Positions 1,833 through 52,825 of a stretch of DNA of 64,000 nt are shown here, piece after piece. The position numbers and the translations under genes are program-made. Below the pieces are notes generated by a model. It was not told the origin of the DNA. It did not search any database and was given only the letters and a program-made list of their open reading frames with translations. This DNA comes from Narcine bancroftii (Eukaryota). The number at the start of each line of letters is the position of its first letter. The first letter of the stretch is position 1. The DNA is taken from assembly GCF_036971445.1 (NCBI RefSeq), contig NC_091469.1, positions 280,364,001 to 280,428,000 on the forward strand, in the 5' to 3' direction.

Positions 1833-2030
1833 CCTTTCTTATTCCTCCATCGGGTGGACATGCAAATTCCCCGGTTGATAAGAGGAAGCAGGGCCCGTCT
1901 CTGGCATTCCTCTCCCTGGTGTTAGAACGAGTGAAGGGGAGGTGATCTTCAGGCGTCAGTGCCTGGTCAATATGAGGACAATCTTCGTTTGCCAATGCTG
2001 CATTTGCTGCATCACCGTTCTGTTTAAAAT
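1833..2030 (-). CDS. KCNC1: KCNC1 exon 3 (Kv3.1b-type C-terminal exon), 198 nt, phase 1/1; not in the ORF track
   Basis: Minus strand acceptor ...tttgaag|ATTTTAAACAG and donor AAGG|gtacgt. Translation (D)[65 protein letters not shown] matches the recalled mammalian Kv3.1b [63 protein letters not shown]. Confidence 0.93.
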
Positions 2031-8783: not shown

Positions 8784-9749
8784 TCAGATGGACATTCCTC
8801 TAAGAGGTTTCCTACCTGCTCTGTTTATTTCTAAAATCTCTTCCTGAGCGAGTGGGCATGTGTCACTCTGTGTACTGTGATGTGGAGAGTTTACACCAGA
8901 TTTACAATAATTGGGGGATCCCAGCTGGGGCGGTCTCGGTATATGCTTCTTTTTCTTCTTTGGTAATTTTTGTTTGGCCATTGCTAAGGAGTAATACATT
9001 CCAAAATTATTGACAATAACAGGGACTGGCATAGCAATGGTCAGCACGCCCGAAAGAGCACAGAGGGCTCCTACCAACATGCCCGACCATGTCTTAGGAT
9101 ACATGTCTCCATAGCCAAGTGTAGTCATGGTTACTACGGCCCACCAAAATCCAATCGGAATATTTTTGAACTGTGTGTGTTTATCGGCTCTCAGATCATG
9201 GGGGTTAGCACCTATCCTCTCAGCATAGTAGATCATGGTGGCAAATATCAGGACGCCAAGTGCCAAGAAGATGATGAGCAGCAGAAATTCATTGGTGCTT
9301 GCACGCAAAGTATGTCCTAAAACTCTCAGTCCTACAAAATGACGGGTCAGCTTGAAGATTCGCAGGATTCGGACAAAGCGAACCACTCTCAGGAAGCCCA
9401 GTACATCCTTAGCAGCTTTGGAAGACAAAGCACTGAGTCCTACCTCCAGATAGAAGGGCAGAATGGCCACAAAGTCAATGATATTGAGAGTATTCTTGAT
9501 AAACTCCACTTTGTTAGGACAGAAAGTGATCCTCATGAGAAATTCAAAGGTAAACCATACCACACAGACTCCTTCGATGTACATTAAGAAGGCTTCTGTT
9601 TCTGTTTCCTGAATAGTTTCCAACCGCGTTTCATTTCCATTCCTTATAATCTCCGTTCTGTTAACAATTGGATTAAATGCCTCATGGGTCTCGAGGCAGA
9701 AAGTGCTGATTGAGACCAAGATGAAGAAAAGTGAAGCAAAAGCACAGTA
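8784..9749 (-). CDS. KCNC1: KCNC1 exon 2 (S1-S6, pore, proximal C-terminus); read-through to TGA at 8786-8784 gives Kv3.1a, internal donor after 8816 gives Kv3.1b
   Basis: Acceptor ttttcttcacag|TAC at 9749 ([14 protein letters not shown]...). S4 is [18 protein letters not shown], pore TMTTLGYGD, then PVP motif and [16 protein letters not shown]. The C-terminus [15 protein letters not shown] is identical to recalled Kv3.1a. Donor is GCAG|gtagga. Confidence 0.97.
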
Positions 9750-51529: not shown

Positions 51530-52186
51530 CCGTGCATATTTAGAGGAATAGGGGTCTTCAAAGAGAGCCCAGATGCGGCGTTGCCATTTCCTCCACCAGC
51601 CGGGTTTTGCCCCGGCTTCAGGGGAACAGTCCCCGAGGGCGAGACGTTTGGTGTCCAACTCATCTTCCGAGTCCCCGACCCCGTCTCCTCCTCCGCCGCC
51701 GCCGTCGCCATCCGCACTGTTGAGATCCGGAGACTCGAAGCTGTCGAGAGCCTCCTCGGCGTCGCGATGCTGCCGATAAGTCATCCAGCAGCAAGGTTCT
51801 ACGTCGGTCTCATCGATTCCCCAGAAGGCAATCTCCTCCTCGTACAGGGGTCCGCACACATCGGCTGGACAGTGGAGTTTGCCCGTGCGGTAGTAGTTGA
51901 GGATGTGAGCAAACACCCCAGGGTGGCGGTCGAAGAAGAACTCGCCCGCCTTGGGGTCGTAGTCGAAATTGGCGAAGGCGCCGGGCTCGGTAAGCCATGC
52001 CAACCGAGTGCCAGGTAGGGTCTTCAGGGTGCTCCGGTACGTTTCGTGCCTAGTCCCTCCCACGTTTATCACGATGCGATCGTTGTCGTCGCCTTTGCCC
52101 ATCTCCTCGATCAGACATGTCGCGGAGGGGGGTCGCTTTCCTGGTGTGCTGCCGCGGGAGGTGGAGACCTGCACTGAGCTGATCAT
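51530..52186 (-). CDS. KCNC1: KCNC1 exon 1 (N-terminus and T1/BTB domain); upstream ATG at 52186, canonical Kv3.1 ATG at 52102
   Basis: [37 protein letters not shown]...[45 protein letters not shown]...[14 protein letters not shown]. Donor CGG|gtaaga (phase 0) joins in frame to exon 2. Predicted Kv3.1a is 512 aa from the second ATG and 540 aa from the first. Confidence 0.96.
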
Positions 52187-52206
52187 TCAGCACCGCGGAC
52201 AGCGGC
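52186..52206 (+). promoter_or_regulatory. RE1/NRSE (REST binding site)
   Basis: TTCAGCACCGCGGACAGCGGC versus consensus TTCAGCACCACGGACAGCGCC (19/21). Confidence 0.85.
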
Positions 52207-52213
52207 CAGGCAT
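52187..52213 (-). other. uORF MPGRCPRC* whose TGA directly precedes the upstream KCNC1 ATG, in frame
   Basis: Minus strand ATG CCT GGC CGC TGT CCG CGG TGC TGA ATG ATC AGC. Confidence 0.6.
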
Positions 52214-52825
52214 CTGTCCGCCGCACCTCCGCCTTCTCCCCGCCTCTTTCCTCCCTCCGACGCCGACCTTCCTTCGTCTCTCCAGGCTCAGGTTTTAACC
52301 ACCACCTCTCCAGCGCGACTGATCAGACAGCTTCGATATTGATTGATCAGGTGTTGCATTTACATTGTTCGGCTTGGTGCAAGCGAGAGAAAGAAAAGAC
52401 GGCGCATTGGAAGGAGGAGCCCAGACCACTCCGCTCTCAGCCACGCTGCGCAGCCGCGAATTCAGGTTCTCGCCACCACCTCCCCCACCCCCACTCCCTC
52501 CACGCCAACCATCGCCGGGCACCGCGCACGGTCTAAGAAACCGTGACAGCTGTCAGAAGGTTGTTTCTTGAGCCACATCAACAGGAGGGTGCACTTCCAA
52601 CCCGAAAGCCACAACCCAGCCCATAAATAGACACAATTCGCAAGAGTCTGTACCAATCCATGGCATTTCTGAGACTGAGATTATGAAAAGGCAGTGGATT
52701 TCGGCGGAAGGAAAGAATGACGGGTTGGCAACCCAGCGATAAACACAAAGCACAAGAGCAAACGTCTACACGGTTTGATTCCTGTGGATGCCTCATGCAG
52801 ATACGAAGACATACACAAAATGTAG

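Follow-up and report, generated by a model that had tools for sequence, protein, structure and literature searches.

Does the KCNC1 gene of the ray Narcine bancroftii carry an N-type inactivation peptide ahead of its usual start, and, if so, would that peptide be translated and would the channel inactivate? The question arises from a 64-kb stretch of genomic DNA (the window), for which the original prediction described Kv3.1 with a Kv3.4-like ball behind a weak upstream ATG and proposed that the choice of start codon could switch the channel between A-type and sustained forms. Translation of the minus strand from 52186 to 52103 confirmed the claimed 28 in-frame codons ahead of the canonical Kv3.1 start, and these codons share their frame with the second methionine (Met29) and the T1 domain. 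The contexts of the two starts were likewise as described, and an in-frame TGA stands in the window sequence immediately 5' of the first methionine (Met1). The features of the locus are as follows.

52187..52213, minus strand: 8-codon upstream open reading frame (uORF) in the channel's frame, with a weak context and a TGA that abuts Met1; a candidate, from sequence only.
52186-52184, minus strand: Met1 ATG, in the weak context TGA ATG A (T at -3, A at +4).
52103..52186, minus strand: N-terminal extension of 28 codons, homologous to the Kv3.3/Kv3.4 inactivation domain.
52050..52118, minus strand: out-of-frame 22-codon ORF that starts 16 nt before Met29 (ATG 52118-52116), with a purine at -3, and overlaps Met29.
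52100..52102, minus strand: Met29, in the strong context GAG ATG G (G at -3, G at +4); the start in bony-vertebrate Kv3.1 models.
51530..52186, minus strand: KCNC1 coding exon 1, comprising the extension, the T1/BTB domain (aa 38-132) and a linker, followed by a GT donor.
8784..9749, minus strand: KCNC1 coding exon 2 (S1-S6), with a donor at 8816 and a coding part from 9749 to 8816.
1833..2030, minus strand: KCNC1 coding exon 3, belonging to longer C-terminal isoforms.

Read-through past the donor at 8816 leads to a stop at 8784 and yields a short isoform of 540 aa counted from Met1; the last exons of the longer C-terminal isoforms were not found within the 64-kb window. A spliced contig from a relative (run X7) covers positions 51530-52158 and departs at 51530 into exon-2-like letters. 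It is the one spliced contig obtained from 4 of 23 runs, and it reaches only codons 10-28 of the extension and includes neither Met1 nor the uORF. Three further runs labelled with the same species, presumed to be RNA, shared almost no sequence words with the locus, a result that bears neither way on expression. Further upstream, 297 nt of the window (52350-52646) are letter-identical in a DNA run with another organism label (X5), which reflects either a conserved promoter or untranslated region or a very close relative.

If the gene were actually KCNC3 or KCNC4, a ball would be unremarkable, and the label "KCNC1-like" is borne by many public models, true Kv3.3 and Kv3.4 proteins included. This possibility is extremely improbable. 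Trees of 45 selected rows, built on the channel core with the extension excluded, unrooted and containing no bony KCNC2 and no cyclostome rows, grouped nine chondrichthyan rows with ten of bony KCNC1, not with KCNC4 (support 97/94 and SH-aLRT 94); in the 97/94 tree the relevant ray row is the Narcine bancroftii gene model, to which the window core is identical at 446/446 positions. Larger published trees, as far as the preprint's Kv3 account goes, also give pan-gnathostome Kv3.1-3.3 clades (bioRxiv 10.1101/2025.09.21.677649). The window core is 91-98% identical to seven other chondrichthyan rows and 81-87% to bony KCNC1, compared with 80-84% to KCNC3, 80-81% to KCNC2 and 76-80% to KCNC4. Moreover, the 29 matches in this genome include four strong Kv3 loci, with separate KCNC2-, KCNC3- and KCNC4-type loci on contigs C23, C27 and C11; by resemblance to named proteins, locus L002 is KCNC3-type, L003 KCNC4-type and L004 KCNC2-type. 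The core trees and these three separate paralog loci led us to reject paralog misassignment.

The neighbourhood may point the same way. On the strand of KCNC1 and 86 kb to its 5' side is a gene with a PF00351 domain (G000:C1:280502406-280517861); the same contig carries a second PF00351 hydroxylase at 262.8 Mb and, 11 Mb from KCNC1 at 269.5 Mb, a MyoD-like gene; MYF5/MYF6-like genes are located on the contig of KCNC2 and a myogenin-like gene on that of KCNC4. We take the PF00351 neighbour to be an aromatic amino-acid hydroxylase, likely TPH1, the names of the neighbouring genes being our assumption. A MYOD1/TPH1/TH group is presumably what should be expected near KCNC1, although the local order differs from the human order. 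From the trees and the four separate Kv3 loci, and with a neighbourhood that may agree, the gene is KCNC1, as the original prediction held.

The extension itself closely resembles the inactivation ball of Kv3.4. Alignment with a Kv3.4 ball (P0088) reproduced the gap-free identity at 18 of 28 positions, and over positions 2-28 the 17 identities observed compare with a maximum of 11 in 100,000 shuffles. The structures of the Kv3.4 inactivation peptide (PDB 1B4G, 1B4I and 1ZTN) match the extension with E=6.7e-6; matches to MazF7 structures (E=0.11) were set aside as chance. The Kv3.4 domain is described as the first 28 residues of the channel, with regulatory sites at C6, C24, S8, S9, S15 and S21 (PMC12184066). 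Like that domain, the ray peptide comprises 28 residues ahead of a second methionine and shares S8, R11, S21 and C24 with it; among the regulatory sites, C24, S8 and S21 are kept, S9 is replaced by threonine, and C6 and S15 are lost. The replacements of Cys6 by Gln and of the RK pair by ST were predicted correctly, and the changes Y10S, S15P, K22A, K26I and N17K are to be added to them. Unlike the Kv3.4 domain, however, the ray peptide is attached to KCNC1 and has three basic residues instead of six, with the differences C6Q/H, S9T, Y10S and S15P. None of three chondrichthyan KCNC1 proteins scanned matched the Pfam family PF11601, whereas all four Kv3.3/3.4 proteins did.

The same extension is widespread in cartilaginous fishes. 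It stands at the beginning of public gene models from 10 of the 11 elasmobranch genera among the matches listed (Scyliorhinus, Carcharodon, Mustelus, Chiloscyllium, Stegostoma, Heterodontus, Narcine, Hypanus, Mobula and Amblyraja), a count that rests on predicted starts of gene models, covers the 15 of 80 main-cluster members listed and excludes a partial catshark model without exon 1. The remaining genus is Rhincodon (whale shark), whose one model (P0136) starts at Met29. In the chimaera cluster, two of seven members (the older RefSeq models P0137 and P0251) carry a diverged 28-residue version with Cys6, a net charge of -1 and identity to the ray peptide at 11 of 27 positions (41%), and the newer, current models (P0247-P0249 and P0252) start at Met29. 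The Met29 starts in the whale shark and in the newer chimaera models represent either an annotation choice or a real loss. A ball begins none of the 139 fetched KCNC1 sequences of bony type that include exon 1; their cores resemble that of the ray at the 81-87% given above, and reading through past exon 2 terminates the short isoform in them too. When 61 candidates were compared with a profile of the chondrichthyan extension, six proteins matched, all of chondrichthyan KCNC1 type, in a word-limited search that is weak evidence of absence elsewhere, and a metagenome scan of 161 candidates returned two loci, a KCNC4 and a teleost-type kcnc1b, with no shark among them. Outside the jawed vertebrates, a Kv3 of the lamprey Lethenteron (P0335/P0340) carries the ball. 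This one lamprey gene runs from the ball into the T1 domain without a second methionine; judging from these sequences, an arrangement with two starts may be particular to jawed vertebrates. The proposal that an ancestral Kv3 ball has been kept in the KCNC1 of this lineage is supported by the lamprey ball together with the spread among cartilaginous fishes.

Whether the extension is maintained as protein can be judged from its pattern of change. Codons 2-28 align without gaps to the KCNC3 and KCNC4 loci of the same genome, with 53/81 and 49/81 nucleotides identical, respectively, and the exact 84-nt spacing between Met1 and Met29 is common to all three genes; directly upstream of Met1, identity falls to only 21/84 and 22/84. 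Among the 27 codons, the first, second and third positions are identical in 19, 20 and 14 cases against KCNC3 and in 18, 21 and 10 against KCNC4, the third being lowest in both. As paralog ratios, which include ancient history and do not come from shark or ray orthologues, dN/dS of the extension is 0.35/0.92 (~0.38) against KCNC3 and 0.36/2.07 (~0.17) against KCNC4; the ratios of the T1 domain for the same comparisons are lower (0.03 and 0.10), and the extension dN between KCNC3 and KCNC4 is only 0.12. At the protein level, identity of the extension between sharks and batoids is 89% with no gap cells, compared with 89.5% and 29 gap cells in the linker after T1 and 99% in T1. Seven of the 29 columns vary among nine genera, and at positions 9 and 14 the variation is between serine and threonine only. 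In KCNC2, there is neither a ball nor a Met1, and the corresponding region contains indels and a stop. Taken together, these comparisons favour continued but relaxed or shifted protein constraint on the extension.

It could also be argued that Met1 is hardly used and that the frame survives through slowly evolving chondrichthyan genomes and a constraint on the 5' untranslated region, for example an element built on the out-of-frame ATG. Conservation of the 24 nt directly ahead of Met29 extends to KCNC2, in which this block is non-coding (0-8 of 500 shuffles scored as well), and part of the conservation may therefore lie at the RNA level. The same block fails in teleost kcnc1b (97-309 of 500), although two teleost kcnc1b genes give a similar conceptual translation upstream of Met29, one of them with a stop. 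The ATG at -16/-17 recurs in all six Kv3 loci compared, and some models start at Met29. On the other hand, such a constraint accounts poorly for the depletion of changes outside third positions, the lack of indels and the sharp fall to chance identity above Met1. Met1 and the exact spacing are also common to elasmobranchs and the older chimaera models despite the 41% identity of their peptides, and neither KCNC2 nor teleost kcnc1b shows conservation of the segment from -100 to -25. We regard this explanation as quite improbable. The idea that the 5' untranslated region of KCNC2 or teleost kcnc1b preserves an extended remnant of the ball was considered separately and was not supported, as 32-436 of 500 shuffles of the -100 to -25 segment scored as well. 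Within KCNC2 (L004, approximately 1486-1509, G000:C23), the 24 nt directly ahead of the start are similar to ball codons 21-28 when shifted by one base. RNA structure around Met1 was no more stable than that of shuffles (z=0.37).

How often ribosomes would begin at Met1 is a further matter. The weak context and, insofar as they lie within the mRNA, the abutting uORF stop and the 10 ATGs within 616 nt above Met1 speak against initiation there, and ribosomes translating the 8-codon uORF would be expected to miss Met1. In the three remaining loci that bear a ball, the 120 nt around Met29 contained no comparable uORF. The combination of a weak Met1 and a strong Met29 is alike in KCNC1, KCNC3 and KCNC4 of this genome; since KCNC3 and KCNC4 share it, the arrangement is inherited and is not a switch specific to Kv3.1. 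In Kv3.3, similarly, a weak first ATG is followed by a second in-frame methionine, and inactivation disappears when the first is skipped: in zebrafish Kv3.3, a mutation of the first ATG, which takes out the stretch between the first two methionines, is reported to abolish fast inactivation (PMC2933717), and start choice has been proposed for mammalian Kv3.3 (PMC9110028, citing Fernandez 2003). Start choice has been shown or argued for Kv3.3 only, however, and Kv3.3 balls, unlike the ray peptide, keep Cys6 and 4-6 basic residues.

A second element of the arrangement is the out-of-frame ATG with a purine at -3, found 16 or 17 nt before Met29 in 6/6 Kv3 loci (the window, L002, L003, L004, L017 and L018, two of which, KCNC2 and teleost kcnc1b, have no ball). 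In the four loci where the region is coding, codon 23 has to end in A for this ATG to exist, and in a post hoc count over the first 190 codons of these loci, only 17 of 157 four-fold codons for Ser, Thr or Pro end in A. Nothing on this ATG in Kv3 loci was found in the open literature among the matches listed; the relevant passages of a report on a human KCNC3 Kozak variant (PMC11595341) and of one that places KCNC2 and KCNC4 among predicted eIF2alpha-dependent genes (PMC12303066) are silent on it. A broader proposal would be that the weak Met1, the out-of-frame ATG 16-17 nt before Met29 and the strong Met29 form an old translational control unit of jawed-vertebrate Kv3 genes. Such a unit would fix how many subunits carry a ball relative to those that lack one, and it would have persisted in KCNC2 and teleost KCNC1 after the ball itself disappeared; Kv3.1 of sharks and rays would then be a living intermediate with a re-tuned, low-charge ball and slow or partial inactivation of a kind not found in bony vertebrates. 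We consider this proposal speculative and, as it stands, rather unlikely.

Would a channel bearing the ray peptide inactivate? The peptide has three basic residues and a net charge of +1 over residues 1-28 and +3 over residues 1-25, compared with 4-6 basic residues, +3 to +5 overall and +4 or +5 over residues 1-25 in 28 distinct Kv3.3/3.4 balls. Over residues 1-25, the net charge is +3 in all elasmobranch rows and 0 in the chimaera, and the net +5 basic cluster of the Kv3.4 ball is absent from the chondrichthyan KCNC1 rows. The basic positions have changed disproportionately (5/6 compared with 5/21 other positions; Fisher p=0.015, post hoc). Residues 1-10 are also more polar, with hydropathies of 0.69-1.03 compared with 1.28-1.70 in the 28 Kv3.3/3.4 balls. 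The ball on ray Kv3.1 is, by its residues, eroded: half of the basic residues, Cys6, Tyr10 and Ser15 are gone. In contrast, the non-polar tip MISSV-x-V and R11 are retained in the ray peptide, and the M-I-S-x-V tip is kept in every extension-bearing row, the chimaera included.

The original prediction implied a fully competent ball that gives A-type Kv3.1, with regulated start choice toggling between A-type and sustained current. The 18/28 identity and the retention of S8, S21, C24 and R11 are in keeping with such a ball, and the start choice proposed for Kv3.3 (PMC9110028, citing Fernandez 2003) and the uORFs flanking Met1 and Met29 with such a switch. In the NMR structure of the Kv3.4 ball, however, R11, R13, K14, K18 and K26 are described as surrounding S8 and S15 (PMC2229409), and the ray peptide has lost three of these five (R13, K14 and K26); in addition, the weak Met1 is family-wide, and its regulation is a proposal. 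Since half of the basic residues are lost, we consider a complete A-type current like that of Kv3.4 less probable than had been implied, and we judge the switch between competent A-type and sustained channels to be distinctly unlikely.

At the other extreme, the extension may be translated and selected with no role in gating, as a phosphorylation or targeting tag or as a merely tolerated segment, so that all current would be sustained. The basic cluster is mostly gone in rays and sharks and, via mostly different substitutions, in the chimaera; residues 1-10 are more polar than in any of the balls compared, Pfam recovers no ball match, and a conserved [ST]PGK stretch occupies positions 14-17. 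We presume that this stretch fits a proline-directed kinase motif. Every extension-bearing row retains the M-I-S-x-V tip, which is the segment predicted to go into the pore, and this argues against a non-gating tag. So does the behaviour of the Kv3.4 ball as reported in the structural work, according to which it is not a simple point charge and charge alone fails to explain what it does (PMC2229409); there, the net charge is given as +5 in 25 residues for Kv3.4 and +2 for Shaker, a value that the ray peptide, with +3, exceeds. Loss of gating is possible but unlikely.

Between these extremes, we tentatively predict, from the residues kept and lost and with somewhat less than even confidence, that block would be weak or slow and that the current would not be transient as in Kv3.4. 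The retained non-polar tip could still plug the open pore, as the non-polar tip of the Shaker ball is reported to do (PMC12460158), and the loss of R13, K14, K22 and K26 together with the polar residue 6 would be expected to slow binding and weaken block. Replacement of C6 or C24 is reported to reduce haemin sensitivity (PMC7239824); the C6-dependent part of redox and haem control and the PKC site at S15 would be gone from the ray channel. Sequence comparison establishes the homology, orthology, frame and taxonomic spread of the extension. The reading that we prefer, held provisionally and just short of an even chance, is that the extension is the ancestral vertebrate Kv3 inactivation peptide on ray KCNC1 and that leaky scanning probably yields long, weakly or slowly inactivating subunits from Met1 together with short, sustained ones from Met29. 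We infer translation from Met1 from the protein-type constraint, the first starts of KCNC3 and KCNC4 being equally weak; in bony vertebrates, the peptide would have been lost from KCNC1 altogether.

As a sequence feature, the ball on cartilaginous-fish Kv3.1 has already been reported and is not new. Jiang, Kopri, Zurnachyan and Jegla (2025) noted that cartilaginous-fish Kv3.1 orthologues appear to have a ball (bioRxiv 10.1101/2025.09.21.677649, Fig. 11C) and, in the same preprint, inferred that the ball was present in ancestral vertebrates and disappeared early from Kv3.2 but late from Kv3.1. Our observation and its evolutionary reading are the same as theirs, while the Kv3 section of that preprint contains no expression of such a channel and no account of start contexts, uORFs or charge loss. 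What is added here is the erosion of charge and residues, the family-wide weak Met1, the 8-codon uORF abutting Met1 and the -16/-17 ATG. No functional work on chondrichthyan Kv3.1 appeared among the matches listed from the open literature, with few subscription journals covered.

Because the shark and ray peptide is natural and long conserved, with its non-polar tip kept and half of its charges gone, it offers a simple test of what a Kv3 ball requires. The conserved out-of-frame ATG before Met29 may represent an overlooked control of Kv3 expression, a post hoc lead from six loci. The extension on ray KCNC1 supports the published view in which vertebrate Kv3 channels originally inactivated fast and fast-spiking neurons gained their sustained Kv3.1 when the ball was lost.
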